Shown here in pieces: positions 2,278 to 38,277 of a stretch of 64,000 nucleotides of DNA (within the stretch, counting starts at the first letter, position 1; each line of letters starts with the position of its first letter). The stretch covers positions 13,581 through 77,580 of the forward strand of contig JAUVZD010000007.1 of the NCBI GenBank assembly GCA_030602715.1. The letters are read 5' to 3'. The notes below the pieces were generated by a model. That model ran no database searches. It was not told the origin of the DNA and saw nothing but the letters and a program-made list of their open reading frames with translations. The translations under genes and the position numbers were made by a program. The stretch is from Candidatus Coatesbacteria bacterium. Its GTDB lineage: Bacteria > RBG-13-66-14 > B26-G2 > JAUVZD01.

Positions 2278-3468
2278 ATGACCAAGGAGAAAAAAAACTC
2301 CCACCCGGTAACCGACACCACTCTAGTTAAGGGCAAGCTGGAGAGCTTTCCCTACTCCAAGGGCATACTCTCCCAATCGCTACTCTCCGCCGGATTGACC
2401 CTTGACCAAGCCTATCAGGTAGCGCAGGAGATTGAGGACCAGTTCTACAATCGCAAAAGGAAGGAGATAACCTCCTCTGAGTTGCGAAAGCTCACTGCGA
2501 AGGTGGTGGCTAAGCGCTTCGGTGAGGAGCTTTCCCAGTCCTACATCTCTATATCCAGCGGCCCACGCACCATGCAGGTGCTCTACGAGGATTCCTCCCT
2601 GCCCTTCTCCAAAGGCATCCTCTCACAATCCCTGATGGCTGCCGGTCTCTCCCCGGAAGCCGCCTTTGCCGTCTCCGCCCGCATCCAGCGGAACCTGGAC
2701 CGGGACAAAACCCGCACCATCACCCACGACGAACTGCGCGGTCGGGTGAGCAAGGTATTGGAAGATGAGTTCGGGCGCACCTACGCCCGCAACTATCTAC
2801 TCTGGCGGAAGATGCGGGAGCCGGACAAACCACTCATCATCCTCATCGGCGGTGGCTCCGGCGTGGGCAAGACCTCCATCTCCAGAGAGCTATCCCACCG
2901 CACCGGGGTGGGGCGCCTGGTCTCCACGGATATCATTCGGCAGATAATGCGCATGATGTTCTCCCTAGAGCTTATGCCCTCGGTTCACATCTCCAGCTAC
3001 GAGGCTTTCAAGACCCAGCCGCAAAGCGGAATGTTTGACAATCCGGTCATCAGCGGTTTTCTGGAGCAGTCCCGGCTGGTCCTGGTGGGCGTCAAAGCGC
3101 TGATTGAGAGAGCCATCAAAGAAAATATCTCCATGATAATTGACGGGGTGCATAACATTCCCGGACTAATAGACCCCCGCCAGATACAGGGCGCTTATCC
3201 GGTCTTCTTCGTCCTTTCTACCGAGTGTATGGAGGCGCATCGCTCTCGCTTCATCAGTCGTGCCGAGGAATCCAACCGCTCAGCCAGCCGCTATCTAAAA
3301 TATTTCAAAAACATCCGCACCATCCAGGACTATATCATTGAACAGGCGGAAAAATTTGACATCCCTATGATAGACAACCACAGCCTGGATAAATCCATCA
3401 TCCAAACTTTGCGCCTGGTCACAGACAAGGTAGCCCAATTTGTGGACATTCCCCAATTCTCAGAATAA
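2278..3468 (+). CDS. 2-phosphoglycerate kinase (archaeal type) with a duplicated N-terminal regulatory domain
   Basis: A duplicated N-terminal repeat (FSKGILSQSLLSAGL... occurs twice), then the P-loop ILIGGGSGVGKTSIS. It is immediately followed by a cDPG synthetase homolog. Confidence 0.7.
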   Translation: MTKEKKNSHPVTDTTLVKGKLESFPYSKGILSQSLLSAGLTLDQAYQVAQEIEDQFYNRKRKEITSSELRKLTAKVVAKRFGEELSQSYISISSGPRTMQVLYEDSSLPFSKGILSQSLMAAGLSPEAAFAVSARIQRNLDRDKTRTITHDELRGRVSKVLEDEFGRTYARNYLLWRKMREPDKPLIILIGGGSGVGKTSISRELSHRTGVGRLVSTDIIRQIMRMMFSLELMPSVHISSYEAFKTQPQSGMFDNPVISGFLEQSRLVLVGVKALIERAIKENISMIIDGVHNIPGLIDPRQIQGAYPVFFVLSTECMEAHRSRFISRAEESNRSASRYLKYFKNIRTIQDYIIEQAEKFDIPMIDNHSLDKSIIQTLRLVTDKVAQFVDIPQFSE

Positions 3469-3477
3469 TTCTGCAAA

Positions 3478-4857
3478 ATGATCAAACTCCAGCTCCCCCC
3501 CAACTTAAGAACGCTGATCCTCGTAGATGGAAGCTACCGGCCGGATACCATCAGGGGGGCTCTGGAGAGCCTGACCGTAGATGAGCAGTATCTCATAAGC
3601 GGGTTGGTCTATCTAGGGGAAGGCGACCTCATTCCCCAGCCGGGGGAGGAACCCTGGGGCAATCTCACCCTCTATCCCCAAGAAGGGGAGTCTCTGATAG
3701 AGGTCCTGGAGCGGGGGCTTACCACTTTCAACCCGCAGATAGTTGTGGATTTGACCAGCAGGCCAAAAATAGATTGGCGCAGTCGCATGATGCTTGCCTC
3801 ACGAGCTCTCTTTCTCGGTTTTCCCTTCGTCGGTTCAGACTTTGCCTTATATCCCCCGCAACTTGAGCAAATCTCCCAGAAGCCGTCCCTTTCCATTATC
3901 GCCCTGGGCAAACGAGCGGGGAAGACCGCCCTCACCGCTCATACCGCTCGCCTTCTCAAGGAGGAGGGCATAAATCCCGTAGTCATCACCATGAGCCGGG
4001 GAGGACCCTCCTTTCCGGAGATATTTTTCGGCGCCGAGGAGATGCTCACCCCACATATGTTACTGCAGATAGCCGAAAGCGGGCGCCATGCCTGCGCCGA
4101 CTACCTGGAGAACGCCTTATTTTCACAGGTAACTACTATCGGCTGTCGGCGAGCCGGCGAGGGAATCTGCGGCGTCCCCTTCAAATCCATCGTCGTTGAC
4201 GGGGCTCTACAGGCAAACGACCTTCCTGCAGACATCCTCATCTTTGAGGGAAGCGGTATCTCCATCCCACCGATAAAATGCGACCGCACCATCCTGATTT
4301 TGCCGGCAACTTTGCCCTTAAGGGAGTTGGAAGACATCTGCGGGCTGTATCATCTCTGGTCGGCGGATATGGTCTTCATAACCCACCTTCAAAGCGCCAG
4401 GCCAAAAAACCTGCGCACTCTGATCAACTTCATCCGTAAATTGCTGGGCGAAATCCATATAATGAAACTGGAGCTGGAACCGCATCCTTTTGGAGATATA
4501 AAAAGTAAACCCATCTTCTTAGCCTCCACCGCTCCCCAAGAGGTGCTTTCCAGCCATAAAAACCTGCTGAAGGAAAAATATAAGTGTAAAATTGTCGCCA
4601 CCTCATCCCACCTTTCCGACCAAGAGGCTCTAATCAAAGACATTGAAGAGGCGCTGGGTTTGCCCCATCCCCCCCAGGTCTTGCTCACCGAGCTGAAGGC
4701 TCATGCGGTGGATACCGCCACCCGCATATTCTTGGAAGCCGACCGGGAGGTGGTATATCTGGACAACAGACCCCGCCAGGCGGCAAAGGTTGACCGACTG
4801 CCCAAAACTCTTTTGGAGATTGCAAAGCAAGCCATAGACTCATTTTCGGGGAGGTAG
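3478..4857 (+). CDS. cpgS: Cyclic 2,3-diphosphoglycerate synthetase (COG2403 family)
   Basis: 459 aa. P-loop-like IIALGKRAGKTALTAHTARLLKEEGINPVVITMSRGGP. Length and arrangement match archaeal cpgS, and it is tightly coupled to the 2PGK gene (9-nt gap). Confidence 0.7.
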   Translation: MIKLQLPPNLRTLILVDGSYRPDTIRGALESLTVDEQYLISGLVYLGEGDLIPQPGEEPWGNLTLYPQEGESLIEVLERGLTTFNPQIVVDLTSRPKIDWRSRMMLASRALFLGFPFVGSDFALYPPQLEQISQKPSLSIIALGKRAGKTALTAHTARLLKEEGINPVVITMSRGGPSFPEIFFGAEEMLTPHMLLQIAESGRHACADYLENALFSQVTTIGCRRAGEGICGVPFKSIVVDGALQANDLPADILIFEGSGISIPPIKCDRTILILPATLPLRELEDICGLYHLWSADMVFITHLQSARPKNLRTLINFIRKLLGEIHIMKLELEPHPFGDIKSKPIFLASTAPQEVLSSHKNLLKEKYKCKIVATSSHLSDQEALIKDIEEALGLPHPPQVLLTELKAHAVDTATRIFLEADREVVYLDNRPRQAAKVDRLPKTLLEIAKQAIDSFSGR

Positions 4858-4858
4858 A

Positions 4859-6109
4859 TTGCCCAACGACTGTAAGGCGATATTCCTGATTCTGGACGGT
4901 CTGGGGGACCGTTCCTGCGACCAGTTGGGAGGACGCACCCCCCTGGAGAGCGCCTCCACCCCAACCTTAGACCGGCTTGCCGCCCAGGGCATTACCGGCC
5001 TGCTGGACCCTCTAGCACCAGGCATTCGGGTGAGCACTGATGTCGGCTGTTTAGCCCTCTTCGGTTACAACCCCCTGAAGACCTACTGGGGGCGGGGACC
5101 TATTGAAGCCGCCGGCGTGGACTTGAAACTCAAGAGGGGAGATGTCGCCTTGAGGGCGAACTTCTCCACCATAAACGAGGAGGGGATAATCGTTGACCGC
5201 CGGGCGGGGCGCATACGAGAGGGGACCGAGGAGCTGGCAAAGGCTCTGGATGGACTAAAGCTGGGTAAGGGGGTGAAGAGCAAGTTTCGGGCCGGGACCG
5301 AGCACCGAGGGGTGTTGGTGCTCTGTGGCGACAATCTCTCGGCGGAGATAAGCGACTCCGACCCGGGAGTAAACCGTGAGGGAGAACCCATCCACGAGGT
5401 CAAGCCCAAGGAGGGGACCGATAGCGCCAAGAATACCGCCAAAAGACTGAACAAGTTCCTGAAACAGGCTTCTGAAATACTCGCCGACCACCCGGTCAAC
5501 CTGCGAAGGATGGAGCAGGACTTACCCCCAGCCAATGCGGTCATCACCAGAGGAGCGGGGATGGGCTTGCAGATTCCCTCGGTCACCGACCGCTTTAATA
5601 TCAACGCCGCCTGCGTAGCCTGCGAGACGACAGTATTGGGTGTAGCCAAACTGGCTGGTTTCGCCACTTTCACCGGTGCTGGTATGACCGCCAACCTGGA
5701 TACCGACCTGAAGGTCAAGGCTAAACTTATCCTGAAGGCGCTTGAGGACTACCAACTGGTCATCTGCCACATCAAAGGAACCGATATCGCGGGTCACGAC
5801 GGCGACGCCCGCAAAAAGGCTGACTTTATCGGGCGGATAGACGATATGCTGGAGGAATTACTGGAAAACTACGACTGTGAGAAGACCTACATCGCCGTCT
5901 CCGCCGACCATTCAACCCCCTGTAGAATCCGAGAGCACACCGCCGACCCGGTGCCCACCCTCATCTGGGGCTACGACATTCTACCCGACAAAGTAACCGC
6001 CTTCCACGAAAGAGCCTGCTACCAGGGCGGACTGAGCCGTATCACCGCCAACGGCTTGCTTTTGACCATAATGGATTATCTGGGAGCGACCTACCGCTTC
6101 GGCTCTTAG
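4859..6109 (+). CDS. apgM: 2,3-bisphosphoglycerate-independent phosphoglycerate mutase, archaeal type (ApgM family)
   Basis: N-terminal AIFLILDGLGDRS is typical of ApgM. 416 aa. The start is 2 nt after the cpgS stop. Confidence 0.75.
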   Translation: MPNDCKAIFLILDGLGDRSCDQLGGRTPLESASTPTLDRLAAQGITGLLDPLAPGIRVSTDVGCLALFGYNPLKTYWGRGPIEAAGVDLKLKRGDVALRANFSTINEEGIIVDRRAGRIREGTEELAKALDGLKLGKGVKSKFRAGTEHRGVLVLCGDNLSAEISDSDPGVNREGEPIHEVKPKEGTDSAKNTAKRLNKFLKQASEILADHPVNLRRMEQDLPPANAVITRGAGMGLQIPSVTDRFNINAACVACETTVLGVAKLAGFATFTGAGMTANLDTDLKVKAKLILKALEDYQLVICHIKGTDIAGHDGDARKKADFIGRIDDMLEELLENYDCEKTYIAVSADHSTPCRIREHTADPVPTLIWGYDILPDKVTAFHERACYQGGLSRITANGLLLTIMDYLGATYRFGS

Positions 6110-6778: not shown

Positions 6779-7513
6779 GTGGGAATCATTGAACGGATAA
6801 AGACCATCATTCGGGCAAACATAAATGACCTGATAAGCAAGGCTGAGGACCCGGAGAAAATCCTCAATCAGCTCATCCTGGATATGCGAGAGAGCTATGA
6901 CGAGGCAAAACAGCAGGTTAAGGTAGCCATCGCCGACGAGAAGATACTTACCAACAAACACGAAGAAGTAACCGAGAAGGTGGAACATTACAAGTCTGGA
7001 GCTGAGAAAGCCCTGAAGAAGGGCGACGAGGAGCTGGCGCGCAAAGCCCTTGCCCGCAAGATAGAGGTAGGGAAGTTGGCGGAGGAATACCGCTTGCAGC
7101 TGGATAAACAGCGCCAGGCGGTAGAGATTCTGAAGTCGGGGCTTATCGCGCTTGACAACAAGATAGACGAGGCAAAGCGCAAGAAGGACCTGCTCATCGC
7201 CCGTGCTGCTCGGGCTGAGGCGGCAAAGACCATAAGCGAGACCCTGGAACAGATCACCGTGGACAGCGGTCCCTTTGAAGCCTTTGAGCGGATGTCAGAT
7301 AAGGTGGAGGCTATTGAAGCCAGCGCTGAAGCATCAACGGAGATAGCCGCCCTGGAGGCGAAGAGGGTCTCCCTGGACGAGGAGCTGGAGGCTCTGGGGG
7401 ATGTGGATGTGGAGGACGAATTATTGGTTCTGAAGGCGGAGATGGGTCTGGAGAAGCCCAAGGAGCTTCCGCCCGAGGAGAAGACCGAGGAGCTACCACC
7501 CTCATCCGAATAA
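6779..7513 (+). CDS. pspA: PspA/IM30 (phage shock protein A / Vipp1 family)
   Basis: GTG start. MGIIERIKTIIRANINDLISKAEDPEKILNQLILDMRE... is the canonical PspA N-terminus; the protein is coiled-coil with an acidic C-terminus. Confidence 0.85.
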   Translation: MGIIERIKTIIRANINDLISKAEDPEKILNQLILDMRESYDEAKQQVKVAIADEKILTNKHEEVTEKVEHYKSGAEKALKKGDEELARKALARKIEVGKLAEEYRLQLDKQRQAVEILKSGLIALDNKIDEAKRKKDLLIARAARAEAAKTISETLEQITVDSGPFEAFERMSDKVEAIEASAEASTEIAALEAKRVSLDEELEALGDVDVEDELLVLKAEMGLEKPKELPPEEKTEELPPSSE

Positions 7514-7602
7514 ACGAGTTTCATCAACAACACCCCCGGGGGAAGTGGACTATTACCCCGGGGGGATTTTCAAGTCGGTTTTCAGGTTTAGAATCGTCCC
7601 AT

Positions 7603-8262
7603 TTGACCACCAATCCGGGGGAATTGGATATGTTCTTTTTATATCTCTTCCACGCTCTCATCAAACCAGGCAACATCTTTCTCTATCTTTTCATCTCGCT
7701 GGTGGCTCTGATCTTCAGCTTCTTTTCACCCGCCGGCTTGTTCATCTTCCTGGGGGGAAGCGCGGTATATGCAGCACTGGTGGGGGTAACCATCGCCAAC
7801 CGGGATTTCCGTCTGAAGATCGCCCACCGGGAACGCCTGCGCAAGATAAGCTACGGCTGGCGCAAGAAGGCTCGGCTGATAATTGAAAAGATCAGCAAGA
7901 TAGATGAACTGACCAAACGGGCCGACCCCTCGGTGCGCGGCAGACTTACCGAGGCGCACATGTATCTGGAACGGATGCAGGAGCAGGCGATCAACCTCAT
8001 AGAGACCATCAGCAAGGTGGAGGAGGCACAGAAGCTGACCCCCTCCGAAAAACAGGTTCAAATGAAGGAGACCAAATCCCGCCTCACCCAGCAGATATAT
8101 AAACTGGAGAGTGGCTTGGATGATGTCACCAGCAACATCATAGGCGTCCTGAGCGCCGATGCTATGGACTCCTCCGCCCAACTGGCATCCATCAACAAAG
8201 ACATCAAAGCCCTATCCGAGGGCATCTCCGCCGCCAGGGAGGAGCTCGCGGCGCTGGAGTAG
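7603..8262 (+). CDS. PspA-adjacent membrane protein (two N-terminal TM helices plus a C-terminal coiled coil)
   Basis: 219-aa ORF. Hydrophobic helices (LYLFISLVALIFSFF, LFIFLGGSAVYAALVGVTIA) are followed by a long charged helical region. The start may be the internal M at 7630. Confidence 0.5.
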   Translation: MTTNPGELDMFFLYLFHALIKPGNIFLYLFISLVALIFSFFSPAGLFIFLGGSAVYAALVGVTIANRDFRLKIAHRERLRKISYGWRKKARLIIEKISKIDELTKRADPSVRGRLTEAHMYLERMQEQAINLIETISKVEEAQKLTPSEKQVQMKETKSRLTQQIYKLESGLDDVTSNIIGVLSADAMDSSAQLASINKDIKALSEGISAAREELAALE

Positions 8263-8350
8263 AAACTGATATAGATAGGCATAAAGCAAAAAAGTTAGTA
8301 AAAAACCCAAATAAGATATTTGCAAACCACAAAAATGGAGGTTGTGTAAT

Positions 8351-10198
8351 ATGTTTAACGCACAATTACGAGATAACCTTAAAGATTTCTTTGGATCAAA
8401 ATTACTTAGAGTGCCAGAGTATCAAAGACCATATGCATGGGAGAAGAAAAATTGGGAAGATGCTTATAATGACATTAAGGATGTTACAGAAGGAGGAAAC
8501 GGAGATATAGACCATTATTGGGGTACAATAACGCTTTACAAAACTAAAGAAAGAAAAGAAGAAGTAGGAAGAAAATTTACAGTCTATGAGATCATTGATG
8601 GGCAACAGCGAATTGTAACGATTATTCTATTTTTACTGGCGATTTCAAAAATTATTAAAAGTAAAAAGACACAAAAAACTATTATTAATAGTTACATCAA
8701 ACGAGGTGACAAATACCGGGTTGAGCTTGGATTAAAGGAAGATGACGATTTTTTTGATAAACTTATAAGTGGTCAAAGATGTAGAGCAACCAGGTTAAGT
8801 CAAAAAATGCTCAGAGGAGCATTAAACCATTTTTCAAATAAACTAAGAGATTGCAAACAAAAAGAAATTGAAAAAATCTATTATAGTTTAGTTGATTCTA
8901 ATATATTAGAGTTTGTTGTTCATGACAGGGTGATGTCTGTTAGGTCATTTCAGTTATTAAATGACCGTGGTAAGGATATCACTTTGATAGACAAAGTAAA
9001 AAGCACACTTTTGTATTATGTTGTCAAGTGCCTTGATAACAACGAGGATAACAACGAAGCAGAAAAATTACTTGACATCATAAATGGTGAATTTGGGGAT
9101 GTTTTTAATGGATATAGCAAAATAGTAACTGTTGGGCAGAGAAGACATATAAAATACCTTGAGCAACTATCTGAGGATGACTTCTTGAGGTTGTTTTATC
9201 ATTATTTTGGTTACTATGCATTCAAAAAATACGACGTTTGGACACAGGATGAAAATGAAGATTGGGTCGAATATGATTTTGACATTTCTGCAAAAGCTGT
9301 GATAGATTCTTTTACCAAACCAGCTTGCGAAGACCTAAAAAACCCAGAAGAAAAGCAACAACTACATGATTTTGTACTAGATTTTTCAAATATCTTTGCT
9401 GAGTGGTCTCGTTATTTTGCAAAAATGGTTAATAAAGCTAATATGAGAAAGAAAAATTATAAACTCACAAAACTTTTACGGTTTCAACAACTATCCGCAG
9501 AAACATACCCAGTAATAATAAATCTAAATTCCAAGGAAATATTAAACTATGAGATTTTGCATCTTATTGAGGTATTAGATTTCCGCGTATATAAGGTAAA
9601 TCGTGGGGACCCAATAGCAGATTTATACAGAAATTTCGTATCAAAAATAATTCTTGATAATGCTGAGAATGAATTGACGAAAAATGGACAGTTTTTGAAG
9701 GACTATATTAGTCATAAAGGGAATGATGATGATGTTGATTGGTATCTTAACCAAAAAGTATATGGCAAACCATGGGTAAGATATGTTTTATGGGAATTTA
9801 ACAAAAAGTTTAATAAAAAATTTAAAGACCTAGACGCAAAAAAATATTTTGACACAAAAAAAATACAGATAGAACATATATTCCCTAGAGGATTGTTTAA
9901 TGATGTTCCAGAAAATGAAATAAAAAAAATACTTAAGAAATATGGATTTAAAGGTTATAGCGATTACAAAGAAAGTATAAACTGTTTAGGAAACCTAGTT
10001 CTCTTTGAGTATAACCCAAAAACAAGCAATAAACACCCACAGGAAAAAGTAAAATATTACAAAAAATCAAAATTCCCTGCCGCAAAAGCGTTGGCAAAAG
10101 AGATAGAGAAAAGCGGGTTTAACAAAAAGAAGTTAGTGGAACGGACTGAAAAAATTGCAAAATTCTGCTTAAAGCGCTGGTCTATTGAACCAAAATAA
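8351..10198 (+). CDS. GmrSD-like DUF262 (ParB-like nuclease) / DUF1524 (HNH-like His-Me) protein; putative type IV modification-dependent restriction enzyme
   Basis: N-terminal PEYQRPYAWEKKNW and DGQQR motifs (DUF262). C-terminal IEHIFPRG...NCLGNLVLFEYNPKTSNKH (DUF1524 HNH-like). The gene is ~33% GC against ~58% for the flanks. The ATG at 8351 with a GGAGG SD is preferred over the track's TTG at 8342. Confidence 0.7.
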   Translation: MFNAQLRDNLKDFFGSKLLRVPEYQRPYAWEKKNWEDAYNDIKDVTEGGNGDIDHYWGTITLYKTKERKEEVGRKFTVYEIIDGQQRIVTIILFLLAISKIIKSKKTQKTIINSYIKRGDKYRVELGLKEDDDFFDKLISGQRCRATRLSQKMLRGALNHFSNKLRDCKQKEIEKIYYSLVDSNILEFVVHDRVMSVRSFQLLNDRGKDITLIDKVKSTLLYYVVKCLDNNEDNNEAEKLLDIINGEFGDVFNGYSKIVTVGQRRHIKYLEQLSEDDFLRLFYHYFGYYAFKKYDVWTQDENEDWVEYDFDISAKAVIDSFTKPACEDLKNPEEKQQLHDFVLDFSNIFAEWSRYFAKMVNKANMRKKNYKLTKLLRFQQLSAETYPVIINLNSKEILNYEILHLIEVLDFRVYKVNRGDPIADLYRNFVSKIILDNAENELTKNGQFLKDYISHKGNDDDVDWYLNQKVYGKPWVRYVLWEFNKKFNKKFKDLDAKKYFDTKKIQIEHIFPRGLFNDVPENEIKKILKKYGFKGYSDYKESINCLGNLVLFEYNPKTSNKHPQEKVKYYKKSKFPAAKALAKEIEKSGFNKKKLVERTEKIAKFCLKRWSIEPK

Positions 10199-10223
10199 TA
10201 ATACGCCCTAGGAGCATTCAAAC

Positions 10224-11363
10224 TTGCACCCCCTTCCAAGAAATATCCTGCAAATCGCCTTAATACTTATCCTTTGCGCCCTCCCAATCATCTCCCGGGG
10301 GGGCGATTCCGCCCTCCTACTATCCCAACTGAGCATATTGGACGGTCGGGTGGGCATCGGCTTAAACTACACCTTCACTGTGGACAATGCCGAGCTTTCG
10401 CCTGTGGAACACCCCTGCCCCTACGAGAAGAGCTACATCGCCCAGGAGTTACATCCCTACCTCCGCTTCACCCTCCATAAAAGTGACGAATCGCTGATAG
10501 AACTCCGCCCCGGCTTGCGCCTGGTTCACATCATCGGCGGAGGGGTCGCCGTCCACCCCCGCATTCAGGCTGAGCTGGCAAGCACAAGCCACCACCTCCT
10601 GCTGGGTCACTTCCGTCCTGACCTCCACCCCCTCTTCCTGCACCTCAAGGCGGAGAGCGACGATTGGCCCGGCGCAGACTACACCTTCAGCAGGGGCTTC
10701 TTCGGCTTTGACCTGCTTGCCGCCCGCACCCAGATACCCGCCGACCGAACCTACGAAACCATCCCTCTGGCGGTCCGTTTGACCGCTTCCTACGGTGGAC
10801 TTTTTCAAATCTCCGCCCTGGCATCAGCCCTCCATCTGGCAGGTCATGACACCGGCGGCACCGGCTATAAACCGCCTGAGCCCTCCAAGCGAGAGTTTCT
10901 CTGCTACGGTGCGGTCGCCGATTTCTCCCTACTTCGCCCCTTCATCTCCAGCGAAGGATGGCTGAACGACATACGAGTGAACGGCGCTCTGGCATTTGGT
11001 CTGGAGCGAGGGGTGGACGGAGGTCTCGCCTGGGATGTAGGCGTGGAGTTAAGGCTATTCAGTTTTATGGGCTTTGCAAGCAACTACTACTCCCTGCAAG
11101 GGGAGTTTGTCTCCCCTCTTGCCCACGACGAACTGCGGGGCGCATCATTCTACTGGTCCAAAGGCTGGAGCTACAGCCAGCCCGGCGCCTACCCCGACCA
11201 CCGCTATCTCAATTTCATCCTCTCCGGCGGCTGGGAATTCATCGGCGCCGTATCGGTGAGCGGAAGTGTGGAGCAGGGCTATCATTTTGAGAAAGACGAC
11301 GACGGAATGCGCCGTCTATACAGCTACAATCGGTTTATCTGCTCGTTGAATATCAGCCTTTAG
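10224..11363 (+). CDS. Hypothetical secreted protein
   Basis: TTG start with an AGGAG SD. N-terminal signal peptide LQIALILILCALPIISRG. No recognised domain. Confidence 0.5.
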   Translation: MHPLPRNILQIALILILCALPIISRGGDSALLLSQLSILDGRVGIGLNYTFTVDNAELSPVEHPCPYEKSYIAQELHPYLRFTLHKSDESLIELRPGLRLVHIIGGGVAVHPRIQAELASTSHHLLLGHFRPDLHPLFLHLKAESDDWPGADYTFSRGFFGFDLLAARTQIPADRTYETIPLAVRLTASYGGLFQISALASALHLAGHDTGGTGYKPPEPSKREFLCYGAVADFSLLRPFISSEGWLNDIRVNGALAFGLERGVDGGLAWDVGVELRLFSFMGFASNYYSLQGEFVSPLAHDELRGASFYWSKGWSYSQPGAYPDHRYLNFILSGGWEFIGAVSVSGSVEQGYHFEKDDDGMRRLYSYNRFICSLNISL

Positions 11364-11521
11364 GCAAAGTTTTTGCAGATAACTCAGGTTGGTTTTGTAG
11401 CGGAGAGTTGAACTCTCCGCTACATTAATAACCCCCACCTATAAAAATACCACCCACCCACAAAAACATTGACAAGCGGGTGGGATTGACTTATTTTGGG
11501 GGAAATCAAGGGGTGTTCATC

Positions 11522-14178: not shown

Positions 14179-14961
14179 ATGAAAAAAGACGAACATATCT
14201 GGAAGACGGCAATCACCGACGCCCGCCCCAACTCCATCCGTTTGCGGGGCTACCGCATTGACGAGTTGATGGGGCGCATCCCTTATTCCCAGGCGGTCTT
14301 TCTGGCTTTCACCGGCAGACTGCCCAACGAGGAAGAGGGACGGTTGGTGGACGCCATCCTGGTCAGCTCCATAGACCATGGGGCTACGCCCCCCTCCACC
14401 CTGGTAGCCCGCACCGTAGCCGGCTGCGATGTTCCCCTGACCAGCGCGCTTGCCGCCGGCATCCTCTCCATCGGCAAAGCCCACGGAGGAGCGGTGGAGG
14501 GCTGTATGGAGCTCATCGGCGAGACGGTTACGATGGCGGATAAGGAAGGCGTCAGCATAGAGGAAGCCGGCCAACGCATAGTCGCCGAGGCTGAAGCCTG
14601 CGGTCGGCGTCTGCCCGGACTGGGTCACCGCTATCACACCGCCGACCCCCGCACCGCACGGCTCTTTGAGCTGGCCGAGGAGTGCAAGTTCTCCGGACGC
14701 CACATCCAGGCATTGAAGGCGATAGAGTCCGCCTTCGCCAAATCCAAGGGCAAAAAAATCCCCATCAATATTGACGGAGCTATCGCCGCCTGCCTCTGCG
14801 AGATGGGCTTCCCCAGCTCCGCCGGAAACGGCTTCTTCATCATCGCTCGCACCACAGGCTTGATAAACCATATTCTGGAGGAGTGGGCACGAGAGCCCAA
14901 GATGCGCAAGATATTCCCGGATTCGGCGGTGTATGATGGGGAGGGGGACAGGAGCTTATAG
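14179..14961 (+). CDS. Citrate synthase-like small protein (citryl-CoA lyase-like)
   Basis: 260 aa with citrate-synthase C-terminal domain motifs (SIDHGATPPSTLVARTVAGCDVP, GHRYHTADPR). Confidence 0.55.
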   Translation: MKKDEHIWKTAITDARPNSIRLRGYRIDELMGRIPYSQAVFLAFTGRLPNEEEGRLVDAILVSSIDHGATPPSTLVARTVAGCDVPLTSALAAGILSIGKAHGGAVEGCMELIGETVTMADKEGVSIEEAGQRIVAEAEACGRRLPGLGHRYHTADPRTARLFELAEECKFSGRHIQALKAIESAFAKSKGKKIPINIDGAIAACLCEMGFPSSAGNGFFIIARTTGLINHILEEWAREPKMRKIFPDSAVYDGEGDRSL

Positions 14962-16252
14962 CCCCCAACCCACCATGCCCTCACCACCCACCAGCATCAC
15001 CCTCACCAAAGACCAACAACTGGCTTTCATCCTGGAATGTCAGGGATTGGGGAAGCGTCCCAGGCGCCCGGGAAAGGCGGACATCTCCGCCCTCATAGAC
15101 CGGCTGGGCTATCTGCAGATAGACACCATACAGGCGGTTCGGCGCAGTCAATATCTGGTCCTGTGGTCCCGATTGGGCAGTTACAATGTAGAGCTGTTAC
15201 ATCAACTGGCATATAAAGACCGTGCCCTCTTTGAGGGTTACTCCCACATGCTAAGCTACATCCCTATGGCTCACTTCCCCCTCTTCTGGATTCGGCATCT
15301 GGAATATCGTAAGAAGCCCCATCCCTGGATGGAGCGGATGGTCAAGGAACTCAAGGGACTGGAGGGGGATGTGCTCTGCCAGATTAAGGAGCGAGGCGCG
15401 CACACCAGCCGGGGGTTCTCAGGGTTACCCGACATACCTGACAAGTATAGGGGGGTAACCTGGGCTTGGCGTCCCTTGCGCGTCGCCCTGGAGCATCTTT
15501 GGAATCGTGGCGAGCTTCTGATAAGCGACCGGGACAACTTCACACGCGTCTATGACCTGACCGAGCGGGTCCTGCCCTCCCCCCCACCCGAAAGCGCTCC
15601 AAGCGAAGATGAACGCAAGCGCTACATCGCCCGGACCACCCTCAAAGCCTGGGGACTAATCACCGAGCGGGACCTGGCGCAGTATGTCCTCCCCCGGGCG
15701 CTCTATGTCAAGCTGTCCAACTCCCGCATTCGTGAGAAACTTCTGCGGGAGATGATTGACCGGGGTGAGGTGGGAACTGCGCAGATGGAGGGTATGGAGG
15801 AGACATTCTACTATCTCACCGACCTGAAGCCCCAACTGGATGCCGTCCTCCGCAGAAGGAAGCCCCTGCCCGATTTTCTCACCCTCCTATCCCCCTTTGA
15901 TAATCTCATCTGTGACCGTCGGCGCACAAAACGAGTCTTCGGCGTGGACTACGCCCTGGAGGCTTACAAGCCCCCCCAACAACGACTTCGGGGCTACTTC
16001 GCCATGCCCATACTGTGGCGTGGGAGACTGGTGGGTTACATAGACCCCCGCCTGGAGCGCAAGCGAGGGGTGATTCGGGTGGACAATGCGGAGTTGGAAG
16101 GGGGATTTAAGGGCGACGATGCCTTCTATTCACATCTGGCGAAAATTCTGAGGGATTTCTTGGGATTTCATGGAGCGGAGAGGATTGAGGTGGGGAGAGC
16201 CAAGCCACCATCGCTCAAAAGGTGGCTTTCGGAGTTTAAGGATAAGATGTAG
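14933..16252 (+). CDS. Winged-helix DNA-binding protein of the YcaQ/AlkZ (DUF1006) crosslink-repair glycosylase family
   Basis: Motifs ALIDRLGYLQIDTIQAVRRSQYLVLWSRLGSY and RGYFAMPILWRGRLVGYID. The true start is uncertain; the track ORF overlaps the upstream gene. Confidence 0.5.
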   Translation: MMGRGTGAYSPQPTMPSPPTSITLTKDQQLAFILECQGLGKRPRRPGKADISALIDRLGYLQIDTIQAVRRSQYLVLWSRLGSYNVELLHQLAYKDRALFEGYSHMLSYIPMAHFPLFWIRHLEYRKKPHPWMERMVKELKGLEGDVLCQIKERGAHTSRGFSGLPDIPDKYRGVTWAWRPLRVALEHLWNRGELLISDRDNFTRVYDLTERVLPSPPPESAPSEDERKRYIARTTLKAWGLITERDLAQYVLPRALYVKLSNSRIREKLLREMIDRGEVGTAQMEGMEETFYYLTDLKPQLDAVLRRRKPLPDFLTLLSPFDNLICDRRRTKRVFGVDYALEAYKPPQQRLRGYFAMPILWRGRLVGYIDPRLERKRGVIRVDNAELEGGFKGDDAFYSHLAKILRDFLGFHGAERIEVGRAKPPSLKRWLSEFKDKM

Positions 16253-17080: not shown

Positions 17081-17280
17081 ATTGGGAATTGAAAGCATTA
17101 AATAACAAAAAAGCCGGGCTTTGCGCCCGGCTAACCTTTATCCAGAGGATAAATATTAAACCCTCAATTAAAATTCACAAGACACTTTCCATATTGTCTT
17201 AAAACCATCAAACCCTCGGTTGACATCTTTTCCATTTCAATTTATACTTCAATTATGGACCTTCAAGGAAGAGCCAGATA

Positions 17281-18926
17281 TGTTTAAAGAATTGCTAAGC
17301 CCCACAACAACCCATTTGGTAATATTGAAGATCGGAGCCCTTGCCATACTGGGCTTCTTAACCGCCGTCTTCATCAGGCGGAGAAGGATTGTTCTCGCAG
17401 TAATCGGCATACTTGTTGTAGCGGTGCTTCATCTCTCTATCTTCGGTTTCTGGTTGATGGATGACGCTTATATAACCCACCGCTATGCAAAAAATTTCGC
17501 TTCCGGTCAGGGGCTGACCTTCAACCCGGAGGAAGCTGTTCCCATAGAGGGCTTCTCATCACCAATTTATCTTTTCACACTGGCTCTCCTCATAACACTC
17601 GGTGCATCATCTTTATATCTTACCCAGATGCTGAGTTTGCTGTTCTTCGCCGTATCTATGATGTTGCTCTTACTCTCCGTAAGAGCTTACTATGAAAAAT
17701 CAACGGAGATAGCCCTCTACTCAATCCTCTTCCTCTCGCTTGCCTCCCCTTACATCGTCTATGCCATATCCGGTATGGAGAACACCCTGGTTTCGTCCTT
17801 AATACTGCTGACAATTATCCTCTATTCAAAGGGCAAGAGAGCATTGACAGCCCTCACCTTCGGATTCCTGGCTATCGCACGCCCGGAGGGCTTCGTCATC
17901 GGTATAGCAGCCCTCACCTGCGACTTAATCGTCACCCAACGCGCCTCAAAGCGGAGGTTCAAGGAATGTGCATTCACAATACTAAAGTGGGTTCCGTTCA
18001 TAGCAATTTTTGGAGCGTATTTCCTGTTCCGCATATTATATTTTGAAGAAATCTTTCCAAACACATATTACGCCAAGATGGGAGGATATGTAGATAGAAT
18101 AGTGACCGGAATTGTATATTTCATCCGCTTCTTCATCTTCTTCGGATTACCCCTCTTCTCAGCTCTCTTTATCATCGGGCGAAAATTTATCAAGATGTAT
18201 CATCTCCCTCTAACGCTACTTGTAGCCTACACAGTATTCATCATCCTTGCCGGGGGTGACCTTCCAGCATATCGTTTCTTCACCTACACCATCCCGTTGA
18301 TCCTCCTGCTGGGGGTTGGTGGGTTGATCCACTTAAAGGGGATTTTAAGACGGGGCTTCACCGCGGTTCTGTTCATAATGATTTTTACCCTGGTATCCGG
18401 CACATATTTTCTGGCTTTGGTGGATATGGGTGGGGGGATTTCCTCATTAAAGGCGAGAGGAATTGTTATCGGAGTTGATAGGGTCCAGGGAGCGTTATAC
18501 AACCTGGCAAACGATATAAATAAGGACGCAGAGGGCGATGAGAAAATCGCATTGATAGATGCCGGCATCGTTCCCTATCTTACTGGATTGACTACCGTTG
18601 ACCTTTGGGGACTGATGGATGCCCAGATAGCGGAATGGAAGTATGCCTGTTCCAGCGGTGCTATTACCGGAGATGAGTTTGACCATAAGGTGTGCGAATA
18701 TTTCTTTGGGGGGCAGGTTGACTATTTGGCTATGGATGTCGTCGGTCAGAGTGAGGAGGAGATTGAAGAGATTCTCTCACAAGGTGAATACCATAAGTTG
18801 GAGAGCCACCACGACTTTCACCGCATAAATGAGGATGAGAAGTTCGTTGGACTCTACGAGGCGGTCGGGGTCTATACCATAAACGACGAATATCACCTGG
18901 TTCTCTTTAAGCGGCTGAGCAGTTGA
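17281..18926 (+). CDS. GT-C fold membrane glycosyltransferase (PMT_2/ArnT-like), paralog 1
   Basis: Multi-TM N-terminal half with a first-loop motif DDAYITHRYAKNFASGQGLTFNP (an ArnT/PMT-like DD/DE-x-Y...RYA motif), then a C-terminal soluble domain. The ATG at 17281 with an SD is preferred over 17220. Confidence 0.55.
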
Positions 18927-19093
18927 ATCTCACCTTGAAGGGGGTGGATTCTTTATTTTTTCCCGACTTTCACCAAATTCCCTACTTTACAGCTTGACTA
19001 TCACATTTCAATAATTTAATTACTAGTTTTCCTTTAAAACATAACCCGGAAGTTAATACCTACAAGAAATTTAAAAAATTTCCGGAGACCAAG

Positions 19094-20845
19094 ATGCGCT
19101 TCAACTCAGGCTGGGCTTGGACCGCCCTGGCGATTTTATCCGCGGTGTTCGTCATTCTTGCCACACTGCAATACTGGTCTATGGAGGAGGACGCCTTCAT
19201 CCTCTTCCGATATGCGGAGAGCGCCGCCCACGGCAACGGACTATATTTCAACGGCGACTACGGCTCACCGGAGCGAGTCGCCGGATATTCCAACATCGTC
19301 TGGATACTGATACTCGCCCTCGTCGCCAAGCTGGGTATCCCCACCCCGGCGGGAGCACGGGCGGTCCTTCTCCTGATAAGTTCGCTCAATCTAATTCTCC
19401 TGTATTATCTTACCAAGCGCATAACCGGCGAGCACCGCCCTCTCAACCTCCTCCCCCCCCTCCTTCTCGCCACCAATGTATGCTATCTATGGTATGCCCC
19501 CGGCGGAATGGAGCCGGCGCTCTTCATCTTCTTCGCCCAGAGCGCATTTCTAGCCTTCATGTATGAAGAGGAACACGGGGTGAGATTCCCCTACTCAGCC
19601 ATACTTTTCGCTCTCCTCACCATGACTCATCCCGAGGGACCGCTCTACTTTCTGGCTGCGGTCGCCTGGCGGGGCGCCAGGCGGTGGCGCAATAAGGAGA
19701 TATTCCTGCGTGACGGGGTCTGGTTCTTCATCTTCTGGACTATCTACTTCGGCTTTCTCATCTGGCATCTGGGCTACTATCGGGACCCCTTCCCCACCAC
19801 CTTTTACAACAAGGGCGTGGGGCATCCCCAGAAACTGCTTCCCGGGTTAAAACACCTGCTCTCCTTCTTCCTGGACAGCAGGGGATACATTCTATTTCTA
19901 CCAATTCTCGCCCTGCCTCTGCGCCGAAAATGGGACCGCCTGGCCTCACCCGGCCCCCCCCAAGGCGGGGTGGCGGGGTGGCTGGTCGCCCTTTTCGTGC
20001 TGGCTGGAGTCGGTTTCATCCTCGTCTGCGGGGGCGACAGCAAAACCCACTATCGTTTTATAATCCCCTTCATGCCCTTTCTCTTCGTCCTGGTTGCGGC
20101 GGGCTTGGCTCGTCTGGGAAAATGGATGCGAAACAAGCGAGCGCTGGCAGTCGCAGTAATTGCATCGCTTGCGGTCATCCTGGCGGTTACAAACACCGTT
20201 CTCTTTGACGATTTCGTCCCCCGGGGCAACATGCTTACCGCAAACATCGCCGAGCTGGTGAAGAACCCCCGCTACCTGATTGACAAGTGGCGATACAGCT
20301 TCGCCCCCTACTCCCACCACCCCAGCACCAATGTAGGTCGCTGGATGAAGGAAAACCTCCCCCCGGACAGTTACATAGCCACCGGACAGACCGGCAATAT
20401 CCCCTATTACGCAGAGATGACCTGCCTGGACATCATGGGATTTAACGACCAAATCATCCAGAAGATACGCATGGAGCGCAACTGGGGGTATAACACATAC
20501 ATCCTGGCACGCAAACCCGACTACCTGGGCGACTACGATGTCATGATGAGGCAGTATGGCGACCGATTAGCCCCCACCCGGCTGGTGGAGGACCCCGACT
20601 TTATCGCCAACTACGAGCTGTATGCGGTCATTGACACCGACCGGGCGGTTCGTGGGGAGAGCATCGGTATACAACGTTTCGTTCTTTTCAAAAGGCGGGA
20701 GCAACCGGTAGAATTAGAGGGCTGGGAATATGAAGAGGCGCTGGAGAGATTTATCTCCAAAGGGGAAAATGTGCTTAGCTACCCCTGTGATTATATCCTC
20801 CCTCCTGGATACAAAGAGAGCGAGAACGATGGTAAAGAGGAGTAA
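19094..20845 (+). CDS. GT-C fold membrane glycosyltransferase (PMT_2/ArnT-like), paralog 2
   Basis: Loop motif EEDAFILFRYAESAAHGNGLYFNGDYGSPE is homologous to paralog 1. About 11 TM helices plus a C-terminal soluble domain. Confidence 0.55.
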   Translation: MRFNSGWAWTALAILSAVFVILATLQYWSMEEDAFILFRYAESAAHGNGLYFNGDYGSPERVAGYSNIVWILILALVAKLGIPTPAGARAVLLLISSLNLILLYYLTKRITGEHRPLNLLPPLLLATNVCYLWYAPGGMEPALFIFFAQSAFLAFMYEEEHGVRFPYSAILFALLTMTHPEGPLYFLAAVAWRGARRWRNKEIFLRDGVWFFIFWTIYFGFLIWHLGYYRDPFPTTFYNKGVGHPQKLLPGLKHLLSFFLDSRGYILFLPILALPLRRKWDRLASPGPPQGGVAGWLVALFVLAGVGFILVCGGDSKTHYRFIIPFMPFLFVLVAAGLARLGKWMRNKRALAVAVIASLAVILAVTNTVLFDDFVPRGNMLTANIAELVKNPRYLIDKWRYSFAPYSHHPSTNVGRWMKENLPPDSYIATGQTGNIPYYAEMTCLDIMGFNDQIIQKIRMERNWGYNTYILARKPDYLGDYDVMMRQYGDRLAPTRLVEDPDFIANYELYAVIDTDRAVRGESIGIQRFVLFKRREQPVELEGWEYEEALERFISKGENVLSYPCDYILPPGYKESENDGKEE

Positions 20846-20978
20846 CGGGAGACGATGGACATGGTTGACCTGCGAAGGGAAACACGCACAATCGCAGTAA
20901 TGATTATCTTGACAAATCGTTTCCTTATGTTAGTATAAATGGTAAGATTTCAACCATTAACCGTAGGGAGGTTCAGAG

Positions 20979-21836
20979 ATGAAGTGGATTACCATTGTTT
21001 TTGTCCTGATGTTCTTGCCCTTCTGGGCATTTGGCTTGTTGGACGATACTGGAGCCGATTTAAGCGCTCCGTTTGGGAGCCAGATACCCACACCCAATCC
21101 CGATGTGGATATTGAGATAGATATCCTCAACACCTTCACATGTTCTTACGCATCGCATATCTTGGGATTGGATTATGTTGAGGACGAAAGCCTCTTGGGG
21201 TTTGACAGCAACTTGAACAAAACATTCTTCTATTGCGACCCTGACGACGGGACCTATGTGGACGAACTGTATCTGGCTTATTCCTCATCCCCCTTCTGTG
21301 CCGTTGCTGACGACAATGGATATGTGTATGTGGACGACTGGGGAGAATCCTACATAAACTGGTGGGACGGATCCTGGCATTCCTTCTCCAATCCCTCTGG
21401 GACCGATGGCAGAGGGATGGACTATGACTTTGACAGCGGTTACCTCTGGGAGACCAAATCCAGCACTGGCGTGTATCGCTTCCTCACCGATGGCACCGGC
21501 TCTGAGTTCTTCAGCCTTTCCGAGGTTCCCACCTCGATGAGCGGGCTCACCGTCTTCCCCCACGGCGACAATATGTGGTTGATGGTCACCACCTATGGCA
21601 CGTTTAACTTCTACTTCTACGAGTTTGACGGCTCTACGCTCACCTATCTGACCTACGAACCCTGTCCCACCGGCTGTTCCTCCTCCTTAGGACTGACCTA
21701 TTCCGCCGAGAGGGACACCTTCTTCTGGAGTTACAATAGCGGTGGCTACAAAATCAGCGAACTGGATATCACCTTTACTTTCACCGCCGTTCAGCCGGTA
21801 TCTCTCGGCTACATCAAGGCTCTAATGAGCGAGTAA
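20979..21836 (+). CDS. Secreted D/G/Y/W-rich beta-propeller-like protein with the conserved C-terminal tail ...VQPVSLGYIKALMSE (family member 1)
   Basis: Signal peptide MKWITIVFVLMFLPFWAFG. The last 16 codons are nearly nucleotide-identical to those of the next gene. Confidence 0.7.
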   Translation: MKWITIVFVLMFLPFWAFGLLDDTGADLSAPFGSQIPTPNPDVDIEIDILNTFTCSYASHILGLDYVEDESLLGFDSNLNKTFFYCDPDDGTYVDELYLAYSSSPFCAVADDNGYVYVDDWGESYINWWDGSWHSFSNPSGTDGRGMDYDFDSGYLWETKSSTGVYRFLTDGTGSEFFSLSEVPTSMSGLTVFPHGDNMWLMVTTYGTFNFYFYEFDGSTLTYLTYEPCPTGCSSSLGLTYSAERDTFFWSYNSGGYKISELDITFTFTAVQPVSLGYIKALMSE

Positions 21837-21857
21837 ATCTTAGAGGCAAGGAAAGCC

Positions 21858-21897
21858 AAAGTGGATGGGTCAATTCTTCCCATCCACTTTTATTTTT
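21858..21897 (+). terminator. Rho-independent terminator (copy 1 of the repeated cassette)
   Basis: AAAGTGGATGGG-tcaattctt-CCCATCCACTTT followed by TATTTTT. Confidence 0.75.
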
Positions 21898-21960
21898 AAA
21901 CGGCTTGGATCAGCATCGTTGCCTGAGAGGGGGAACCATCCCAATCGGGTAATTTTTTTC

Positions 21961-21989
21961 TTGACATCTTTACTATTTTTATCTATAAT
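21961..21989 (+). promoter_or_regulatory. Consensus sigma70 promoter TTGACA-17-TATAAT (cassette copy 1, drives family member 2)
   Basis: An exact -35/-10 consensus with a 17-nt spacer. A strong SD AGGAGG lies before the ATG at 22093. Confidence 0.7.
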
Positions 21990-22092
21990 TTCAATGTAGT
22001 TACCCAGATAGTTAGTGGTTTTATTTTATTATTTTGTTTGTGGCTTCATAGTGAGGGGCTGAAACAAAAACCTAAAAAAAGGAGGATTTGGG

Positions 22093-22890
22093 ATGAGAAT
22101 TTTACTTATTTCAGTTATCTTGGTAGCAGTGGCTGCTGTTGCCTATGGAGACCCGGGCGATATTCTTGACCAATGGCAAGTCTCTGGCCAGTCTTACAAT
22201 TATGTCCGCGGGTTGGCTTATGATTGGAACGATGAGGATGTCTGGTGTATTGATAACGATGCCGGCTATGCTATTGACTATTGCAAGTTCGACGGCGCAT
22301 CACCACACGATGTAGTCGTCCCCTGGGATGATGTTTCCTCAACTTGTTACTGGGGCTTTGACATCGCCTACGATGGAACCTACATCTACATGAATGACCA
22401 GAATATTCTTGTTTATGTAATTGACCCCACCGATGGAAGTGTGGTGGATTCCTTTAGTGCCCCTTGTGGTGGCGGAGATTATCCCGAGGGCATCGCCTAC
22501 AACCAGGATACTGACTACCTTTACCACACCGGTTTTTACAGTAAGACCATGTGGGTAACCAACACCAGTGGGACTGTTGTTGATACCTGGACCAATATTC
22601 TCCCATCCGCTTCTGGTAATATGGGCGTAGCCTATGGATATGGAAGGATCTGGGTTACCAATAACACCACTAATGAGATCTACCGAATAGACCCAGACAC
22701 CGGCACTCTTGAAGTAACATTCGGTCACAGTATACCTGACTATGAGTTAGGTCTCTGCTGGTCACCTAACGACACATTATTTGCTGCTAATTTCTTGACT
22801 GGATACATCTACGAAATTGAGCCGGACCTAACCTTCACCAGTGTACAGCCAGTATCTCTCGGTTACATCAAGGCTCTAATGAGCGAGTAA
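22093..22890 (+). CDS. Secreted beta-propeller-like (NHL/YVTN-like repeats) protein with the conserved tail ...VQPVSLGYIKALMSE (family member 2)
   Basis: Signal peptide MRILLISVILVAVAAVAYG. Repeats resemble GIAYNQDTDYLY and RIWVTNNTTNEIYRIDPDTG. The C-terminus is identical to member 1. Confidence 0.7.
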   Translation: MRILLISVILVAVAAVAYGDPGDILDQWQVSGQSYNYVRGLAYDWNDEDVWCIDNDAGYAIDYCKFDGASPHDVVVPWDDVSSTCYWGFDIAYDGTYIYMNDQNILVYVIDPTDGSVVDSFSAPCGGGDYPEGIAYNQDTDYLYHTGFYSKTMWVTNTSGTVVDTWTNILPSASGNMGVAYGYGRIWVTNNTTNEIYRIDPDTGTLEVTFGHSIPDYELGLCWSPNDTLFAANFLTGYIYEIEPDLTFTSVQPVSLGYIKALMSE

Positions 22891-22911
22891 ATCTTAGAGG
22901 CTAGGAAAACC

Positions 22912-22952
22912 AAAGTGGATGGGTAATTTCTTCCCATCCACTTTTTATTTTT
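22912..22952 (+). terminator. Rho-independent terminator (cassette copy 2)
   Basis: The same hairpin as copy 1, followed by a T-run. Confidence 0.75.
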
Positions 22953-23015
22953 AAACGGCTTGGATTTGTATCGTCTACTGAGAGGGGGAACCATCCCAAT
23001 CGGGTAATTTTTTTA

Positions 23016-35296: not shown

Positions 35297-35541
35297 CGGA
35301 TACAGCGTTTTAACAGCACATTCATCCCGCCCCCTTTTGGGGCGGGATTTTTCATAAGAATTTTGGAGATGAGATCTCTGATTTTTCAAAGACCCTTTAA
35401 AGCTATTCTGTTTTACTCCTCCAAACTCCTAAGCAAATTATGGATGCAAACAGAGTTCTTATTCTTGACATATTTTCCAGTGTGTGATAAAATTATAAAG
35501 TAATTAAGAGGAAATTAATCTAATATTAAGATGCACAAAAT

Positions 35542-36525: not shown

Positions 36526-36701
36526 ACCATCAAAATAAACAAAAAAATTCTCCCCCCGCAAAATCAGCTTGTGGGGTTTTTTTGCTTCAGATTATCCCCC
36601 TCTCCAAAAACATCCTCATAGCCACCAACTCCACCATCCACTTGACATCCCCCCCAAAAGAGTTATAATTCATACAATTACACCTTAAAAAGGAGCACAC
36701 T

Positions 36702-37424: not shown

Positions 37425-37441
37425 CAGCATCTCTAATCTGT

Positions 37442-38226: not shown

Positions 38227-38277
38227 ACCATCCCTAAAAGAAGACAGCCAAAAGCTAAACGTTCCTCTATCTGAGAG

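Follow-up and report, generated by a model that had tools for sequence, protein, structure and literature searches.

A solitary AT-rich islet encoding a predicted GmrSD-superfamily nuclease is polymorphic at a conserved intergenic site in a Candidatus Coatesbacteria population

How does a single AT-rich gene come to lie between housekeeping genes of a more GC-rich bacterial genome, and what would its product do there? The question is raised by a 64,000-nucleotide stretch of a Candidatus Coatesbacteria contig (JAUVZD010000007.1, positions 13,581 to 77,580), referred to here as the window, in which an islet of 1,960 bp encodes a protein with the domains of the GmrSD restriction nucleases. The islet is of horizontal origin and varies within one population, both in its presence or absence and in the allele that is carried. 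Its gene probably encodes a self-contained, single-polypeptide nuclease of the GmrSD superfamily which, by analogy with characterised relatives, would act as a stand-alone anti-phage restriction enzyme, HEC-06-like or type IV-like in its manner.

The guanine plus cytosine (GC) content of the islet is 0.314, as compared to 0.529 +/- 0.032 for the other segments of 1,960 bp in the window (z = -6.7). A sharp drop had been claimed in an earlier note on this DNA, and the lowest-GC segment of this length in the 64 kb indeed starts at 8263, the position given there; the runner-up segment has a GC content of 0.432. The immediate flanks of the islet range from 0.55 to 0.63. At third codon positions, the GC content (GC3) is 0.27 in the islet gene against 0.68-0.74 in the three adjoining genes. 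Both transitions lie within about 40 nt of a gene border: on the left this is the stop codon at 8260-8262, which ends the upstream gene, and on the right the TTG at 10224, with which the downstream gene starts.

One long open reading frame (ORF) fills the islet (8342/8351-10198, plus strand). Its start codon is most likely the ATG at 8351, since a GGAGG Shine-Dalgarno sequence stands 9 nt before it, the public gene call is the same and the N-termini of homologues agree. The product is then 615 aa long, so that the 616 aa given in the earlier note hold approximately; an alternative mechanical TTG start gives 618 aa. The identical protein (P0001) is present in a 149-kb NCBI contig and in the Logan contig L001. 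The description as a single-gene islet was confirmed by the ORF list and a repeat check of the insert, which revealed no second gene, mobility gene or repeat, and a search of Rfam gave no match inside the islet.

The DUF262 (DGQQR) and DUF1524 architecture, proposed earlier from motifs, is supported by Pfam matches of 1e-26 and 9e-14 (Table 1), by the invariance of the motifs and by a fold that matches only DndI, SspE and BrxU. DGQQR occupies residues 83-87 and EHIFP residues 508-512 (with H509), and LGNL holds N548. In an alignment of 23 homologues (24-57% identity), all 23 retain P22, Q25, R26, W30, D83-G-Q-Q-R87, N204, R206 and G207, and likewise H509, G547-N548-L549, N555, K566 and Y570 in the C-terminal part; by sequence, these residues make up the family's predicted signatures of a nucleoside triphosphatase (NTPase) and a His-Me nuclease. 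The nuclease motifs are therefore present on full alignment as well. In an AlphaFold2 model built on the homologue alignment (predicted local distance difference test score 90.1, predicted template modelling score 0.88), an alpha/beta N-domain is followed by an extended helical region and a C-terminal domain containing a beta-beta-alpha element. A two-domain architecture, intact motifs and a confident fold are thus combined in a solitary gene whose 615-codon frame is intact in DNA of 31% GC.

For comparison, exact-sequence look-ups of the flanking proteins yielded eight independent metagenome contigs, all from one species-level population and 95-99% identical in the flanks. The site is empty in L082, L083, L091 and L096, the flanks of which are 97-99% identical to the window. 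Here a spacer of 78-81 bp, with a GC content of 42-51% and unrelated to the islet, runs from the stop codon of the upstream 210-aa gene to the TTG of the downstream 379-aa gene. A more distant relative (L084) is also empty; its flanks share about 71% nucleotide identity with the window, its 379-aa orthologue is 61% identical and the two genes are 15 bp apart. A metagenome scan with the 379-aa protein gave three loci only, and L084 served as outgroup; a contig scan with PspA gave only PspA genes of 39-52% identity from Myxococcota, Cyanobacteria and others. As L084 and the four near-identical contigs are all empty, absence is the ancestral state and the islet replaced the spacer. The comparison with relatives lacking the insert, suggested in the earlier note, thus shows that some relatives lack the gene at the syntenic position. 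The genes upstream of the islet encode, in this order, a CBS protein, PspA/IM30 and the 210-aa partner, and those downstream the 379-aa protein, an MgtE_N/CBS protein and an NRAMP transporter. The PspA, 210-aa and 379-aa genes are contiguous in the empty-site relatives, and this holds even in L084; the islet therefore interrupts a conserved gene string. The PspA module named in the earlier note is indeed present upstream, but its description of the downstream product as an unrelated secreted protein is unproven, since the gene string is conserved even in L084.

Four contigs are occupied at identical junctions. Allele A, that of the window, is complete (615 aa) and identical in L001, the contig that corresponds to the window. 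Allele B (L087; P0002, 576 aa) shares 57% amino acid identity with A; L094 covers the final 91 codons, with a right junction identical to that of the window, and L095 the first 73 codons of a further allele, C. Between the window and L087, identity is 94-100% per 150 bp in the flanks, about 91% in the leader and 57-73% in the gene interior. At the protein level, residues 1-30 of A and B are 93% identical, and residues 331-470, in the central helical domain, are the most diverged (46%). The relationship among alleles changes along the gene. In codons 1-28, A differs from B at 2 of 84 sites and from C at 24 of 84, while in codons 29-73 A differs from B at 39 of 135 sites and from C at 12 of 135 (Fisher 2e-7 and 3e-4). 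Towards the 3' end, L094 departs from the window at 41 of 152 sites and then, up to the junction, at only 4 of 123 (Fisher 2e-8). Intragenic recombination would account for such shuffling of islet alleles. Alleles that differ at about 40% of their nucleotides retain both frame and motifs, which implies purifying selection.

Two of the occupied contigs show further irregularities. After codon ~570 of allele B, unrelated low-GC DNA follows (36%; L087:5100-5376) with a partial ORF of 80 aa on the opposite strand that is without a match in Pfam or PADLOC; in this haplotype, the islet has thus been remodelled or extended. In L095 (3150-3290), an abrupt switch to GC-rich sequence occurs after codon 73 of allele C. 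With an assembly coverage of 2.4x, this is probably a chimeric join, the alternative being another insertion.

Islet presence or absence is decoupled from the flanking haplotypes. Over the 1.5-kb left flank, the window differs at 16-20 positions from the empty L082, L091 and L096 as compared to 36-48 from the occupied L095 and L087, and the right flank is likewise nearest to the empty L082. Since the flanks of the window are closest to empty haplotypes, the window strain appears to be a comparatively recent recipient. The recent horizontal acquisition proposed in the earlier note therefore holds for this strain; for the locus it is incomplete, as three other contigs carry diverged mosaic alleles at the same junctions. 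Insertion by a transposon, an integron or an integrase was considered and rejected: the site has neither a target-site duplication nor a tRNA, a recombinase gene is lacking, and the only terminal inverted or direct repeats are A-rich matches attributable to chance. The islet may have been gained through an old illegitimate insertion that replaced the intergenic spacer, and homologous recombination within the conserved flanks would carry it from one lineage to another. Seen across the population, the locus has the behaviour of a defence polymorphism that undergoes recombination. Fixed core-gene sites that are either empty or filled with different restriction genes, with exchange driven by flanking homology, have reportedly been found in Escherichia coli pan-genome hotspots and in the immigration control region of Listeria. 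The site described here resembles these in being alternately empty or filled, but its cargo is a single gene and its variants are mosaic alleles of that one gene, down to 57% amino acid identity.

To place the protein among known enzymes, structure and profile searches were carried out. Foldseek against the PDB with the model as query returned seven significant matches, all of them DndI (best, 9JFL, 2.4e-15), SspE (7DRR/7DRS/6JIV, 2e-9) or BrxU (7P9K, 1.6e-5). A profile of the subfamily aligned with DndI (9JFL) over its full length and both domains (E = 2.6e-41), with SspE mainly in the N-domain (8e-21) and with BrxU in the C-terminal domain only (5e-3). In PADLOC, the top matches were two HEC-06 models (3.5e-38, 129.5 bits; and 4.1e-37), followed by Orf5 (4.9e-35, 119 bits); SspE models matched residues ~21-115 at the N-terminus only (5e-14), and HEC-05 (BrxU) was absent from the matches of the islet protein. 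No NCBIfam model matched it. The closest solved and characterised relative is therefore DndI, together with the HEC-06 of PADLOC, and not GmrSD, BrxU or SspE proper. The earlier note had likened the protein to these three enzymes; its superfamily assignment stands and the Pfam GmrSD domains are found, but DndI, which it omitted, is nearer, the match to SspE is limited to the N-terminus and that to BrxU is marginal.

The Orf5 models of PADLOC are, we infer, those of Salmonella Cerro 87 ORF5 and hence of DndI. ORF5 lies between dptB-E and dptF-H in this strain (PMC2978375), and dndI, as it was later named, occupies the position of that ORF5 (PMC11662687). By sequence, the islet protein appears to belong to a DUF262-linker-DUF1524 clade of ~560-620 aa which holds both HEC-06 and DndI, and of which it is one more diverged branch. 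More distant homologues such as P0018 fit HEC-06 much better, P0018 with 284 bits along the entire length, which places the islet subfamily at the edge of HEC-06 or outside it. An exhaustive HMMER search of 1.84 billion representatives of 50%-identity clusters gave 65 representatives at E <= 1e-30, 1,019 at 1e-10 and 5,926 at 1e-3, and on these sequence matches the superfamily is very large and the subfamily only a minor branch of it. Because the clade contains stand-alone as well as modification-coupled enzymes, hidden Markov model scores alone do not tell the type to which a member belongs.

HEC-06, a GmrSD-like single protein, protects E. coli from phages unaided and loses this ability with Q79A/R80A in DGQQR or E471A/H472A in EHICP (bioRxiv 10.1101/2024.01.29.577857). 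It resembles the islet protein in being a single chain of ~560-600 aa in which a helical linker joins DUF262 to DUF1524, and in having DGQQR together with an E-H nuclease variant (EHICP in HEC-06, EHIFP in the islet protein); HEC-06, however, is found inside Hma defence systems while the islet gene stands alone between housekeeping genes. GmrSD and BrxU share the Pfam domains GmrSD_N and GmrSD_C with it, and BrxU is a significant fold match, but the sequence relation is remote and BrxU is embedded in BREX. Membership of BrxU was rejected on the profile score of 0.005 in the C-terminal domain only, on the lack of an HEC-05 match and on context. A stand-alone action independent of a modification system, as in these enzymes, is nevertheless the most likely working model for the islet protein; type IV enzymes in the strict sense cleave only modified DNA (hmC, glc-hmC, 5mC) and do without a cognate modification enzyme, and the solitary context of the islet gene is compatible with such action but is no test of specificity. 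SspE (6JIV/7DRS) has a similar DUF262 N-terminal domain. It differs in its length of ~770 aa, its C-terminal half, its activation by phosphorothioate (PT) and its encoding with sspABCD, and membership of SspE was rejected in view of the 615 aa of the islet protein, the partial PADLOC match and the lack of ssp genes nearby.

The gene neighbourhood was inspected over +/-10 kb for the window and for four homologues from among the closest, three of them bacterial and one archaeal. The annotated neighbours at these loci include no dnd, ssp, BREX or Hma gene, and 10 further ORFs of the window had no PADLOC match. All four homologues looked up are solitary genes and more AT-rich than their host. P0003 (44% identity; a bacterium, L088) lies beside a glycoside hydrolase and a PASTA protein, with a gene GC of 0.25 against 0.41 in the flank. 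P0004 (39%; L090) comes from an archaeon encoding CdvA and EMG1, has no adjacent defence genes and shows a GC of 0.36 against 0.47, and P0009 (37%; a bacterium, L097) lies between a homoserine dehydrogenase and a PALP enzyme (0.34 against 0.56). More remotely, relatives of 25-30% identity were found on two plasmids, beside RnlAB on a conjugative one of Desulfotalea psychrophila and in one gene run with Sir2-family and MoxR/VWA genes on one of Sphaerotilus. Among the insertion sites of the distant homologues, no common leader or target motif was found. A cassette that is toxic without its partner is a poor candidate for promiscuous solitary spread, and this favours an enzyme that acts alone.

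For the islet protein, NTPase and nuclease activity, an anti-phage or anti-plasmid role and the nature of the trigger are predicted from HEC-06, DndI, BrxU and SspE. In the mechanism that we propose, the ParB-like DUF262 domain would bind and hydrolyse a nucleoside triphosphate via DGQQR (D83-R87), with the help of PEYQR and NDRG. The nucleotide cycle would set the relative position of the domains, and probably also dimerisation and DNA affinity. It would in this way gate the C-terminal His-Me finger (E508-H509, N548, N555) for metal-dependent nicking or cleavage of phage or plasmid DNA. No partner gene would be needed, and foreign DNA would be told apart by a feature of the DNA, most likely a base modification as in type IV enzymes.

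Several points weigh against a nuclease acting alone. The HEC-06 models of PADLOC match in two partial stretches and not end to end, and they have no curated cut-off, which renders the subfamily assignment soft; their scores are, in addition, nearly tied with those of Orf5. The enzyme closest in structure, DndI, relies on PT marks written by DndBCDE and is hence not stand-alone (PMC11662687). The lack of dnd and ssp genes applies to 64 kb of the genome, and such genes are possible elsewhere. Allele B is without its last ~45 residues, a C-terminal truncation which suggests that some copies at the locus may be decaying. In the leader, a scan covering promoters of the sigma-70 type only found no sigma-70-like promoter. 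A scan for terminators found none that would separate the islet from the flanking genes, and the islet gene may be transcribed by read-through from the co-oriented PspA genes.

The protein could alternatively be a DndI- or SspE-like, PT-sensing restriction component, attacking PT-free DNA or being switched by PT, with its dnd or ssp cluster elsewhere in the genome. We consider this unlikely. In its favour, DndI is both the best structural match and by far the best profile match, and Orf5, DndI by inference, scores nearly as well as HEC-06. DndI is an ATPase and nickase of 596 aa; PT marks stimulate its ATPase so that self DNA is released, cells without PT are poisoned by the protein, and an R87A exchange in D83GQQR87 abolishes both ATPase activity and defence (PMC11662687). 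The islet protein shares the ATPase plus HNH-type nickase architecture, the numbering of DGQQR (83-87 in both) and a P-x-Y-Q-R patch, in which P22, Y24 and Q25 align with the PT-sensing P23, Y25 and Q26 of DndI. P-x-Y-Q-R is, however, probably a general DUF262 motif, in which case this alignment would not be diagnostic of PT sensing, and the identity between the two proteins is only 17-18%. DndI is encoded beside dndBCDE and dndFGH, whereas no dnd or ssp gene was seen beside the islet gene or in the four homologue contexts. Toxicity in PT-free cells is, moreover, ill-suited to a solitary cassette found in unrelated bacteria and an archaeon, and to presence/absence polymorphism.

Two other readings have also to be weighed against a restriction nuclease acting alone. 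A decaying or silent passenger, retained only through its recent acquisition, would be in keeping with the unameliorated composition (GC3 0.27), the failure to detect a promoter, the truncated allele B and the half of the conspecific contigs that are without the gene. Such a passenger is improbable, because the 615-codon ORF is intact at 31% GC, a composition at which chance stop codons are frequent, the catalytic motifs are all invariant, frame and motifs are kept across ~40% nucleotide divergence as expected under purifying selection, and a good Shine-Dalgarno sequence precedes the gene, which runs in the same direction as the rest of an operon-like string. A selfish homing-type element, in which the His-Me nuclease would cut the empty allele and the gene would be copied in by recombinational repair, is very improbable. 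It would account for a precise intergenic placement without integrase, transposase or target duplication, and the exact replacement of the spacer without terminal inverted repeats or a mobility gene agrees with it, as does the decoupling from flank phylogeny. Single-gene homologues occur in three other hosts, and two of these homologues occupy 76-116 bp spacers that separate housekeeping genes of like orientation (clearest in L097); among free-standing homing endonucleases, the His-Me/HNH class is common. But we know of no DUF262-DUF1524 protein that homes, and all characterised members are defence enzymes; the insertion sites in different hosts have no conserved target or leader sequence, and ordinary homologous recombination in the flanks suffices for spread within the population.

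With a stand-alone restriction nuclease as the preferred reading, the locus offers a natural experiment: within one species-level population of an uncultured marine-sediment bacterium, identical junctions enclose either no gene or one of at least three mosaic alleles of a single solitary nuclease. Comparing the activities of these alleles could map the determinants of target choice and could help to part stand-alone from PT-coupled members. The locus also illustrates how single defence genes can be exchanged between conspecifics without the machinery of mobile elements. The surprise is limited since solitary DUF262/DUF1524 genes in AT-rich islets are common; what is added is a demonstrable empty site and a mosaic multi-allele polymorphism, which makes the locus modestly attractive for studying the evolution of specificity. 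As a speculation that we think doubtful, the subfamily might be a single-gene cassette without mobility genes that repeatedly enters housekeeping spacers of unrelated bacteria and archaea and persists as a balanced polymorphism of empty sites and diverged mosaic alleles. Diversifying, frequency-dependent selection might then act on the central domain, if this determines specificity. In a more radical version of the same idea, the nuclease may promote its own spread in a homing-like manner.

Table 1. Features of the islet, its gene and the adjoining host genes (positions in the window).
Feature	Position	Strand	Remarks and basis
AT-rich islet, 1,960 bp	8264..10223	+	in place of the intergenic spacer of empty-site relatives; BLAST and alignment against L082, L083, L091, L096
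AT-rich leader, 87 nt, with Shine-Dalgarno GGAGG (8337-8341)	8264..8350	+	~87-90% identity, common to all occupied haplotypes
Gene for the 615-aa GmrSD-superfamily protein, stop TAA 10196-10198	8351..10198	+	ORF, Pfam, public gene call
DUF262/GmrSD_N (ParB-like NTPase) domain; PEYQR 8414-8428, DGQQR 8597-8611, NDRG 8960-8971	8381..9010	+	Pfam PF03235, 1.1e-26, above gathering score
Central all-helical linker, ~residues 231-470	9041..9760	+	secondary structure of the AlphaFold2 model
DUF1524/GmrSD_C His-Me finger nuclease domain; EHIFP 9872-9886, LGNL 9986-9997, N555 10013-10015	9746..10162	+	Pfam PF07510, 9.1e-14, above gathering score
Right junction, 25 nt; AGGAG 10210-10214 is the ribosome-binding site of the downstream 379-aa gene	10199..10223	+	also in L094
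Left flank host genes: PspA/IM30 (6779-7513) and 210-aa partner (7630-8262)	6779..8262	+	Pfam PF04012, 5e-46
Right flank host gene, 379-aa protein with signal-peptide-like N-terminus	10224..11363	+	no Pfam or NCBIfam match

Further variation was seen near the islet. A second variable spot lies ~1.1 kb downstream, where the window has a spacer of 116 bp (11364-11479) between the 379-aa and MgtE_N/CBS genes. At the same spot, the near-identical L082 (8298-10467) contains three extra genes of 226, 235 and 204 aa, two of them with double zinc-ribbon domains, and the outgroup L084 (3756-5675) has an oppositely oriented gene for a PD40 beta-propeller protein of 639 aa. A gene for an AlkZ-like DNA glycosylase (14933-16252; 6e-54) follows a few kb further downstream; since it is also conserved in L082, which has the empty site, it does not belong to the islet.

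Elsewhere in the window, a tRNA-Val (GAC) gene is located at 1325-1398 on the minus strand. Contigs L001, L082, L091, L092 and L093 all start at ~1349, inside this gene, which suggests a repeat or variable region, and a possible integration site, just beyond. An operon-like run at 2278-6109 encodes a 2-phosphoglycerate-kinase-like protein (ATP-cone/AAA_18), a CpgS_N protein of the cyclic 2,3-diphosphoglycerate synthetase family and a cofactor-independent phosphoglycerate mutase. The cyclic 2,3-diphosphoglycerate pathway is known mainly from thermophilic methanogens; the run occurs here in a bacterium-like genome with relatives in a marine-sediment metagenome. Two patches of low GC (0.42-0.46), at 17220-23000 and 35000-38300, possibly represent other acquired or lineage-specific genes. 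Their ORFs of 568, 583, 285, 240, 190 and 295 aa had no PADLOC match, those of 568, 583 and 285 aa also no Pfam match, and the patches also hold a 265-aa DUF6923 protein. A 905-aa Peptidase_C13 protein (32579-35296) ends in a Por_Secre_tail domain, a sorting domain of the type IX secretion system which is a hint, though no proof, of a host lineage of the FCB type. The nearest named relatives of the GroEL encoded at 43985-45613 on the minus strand, listed as 'bacterium' and Candidatus Omnitrophota, are ~75% identical to it.

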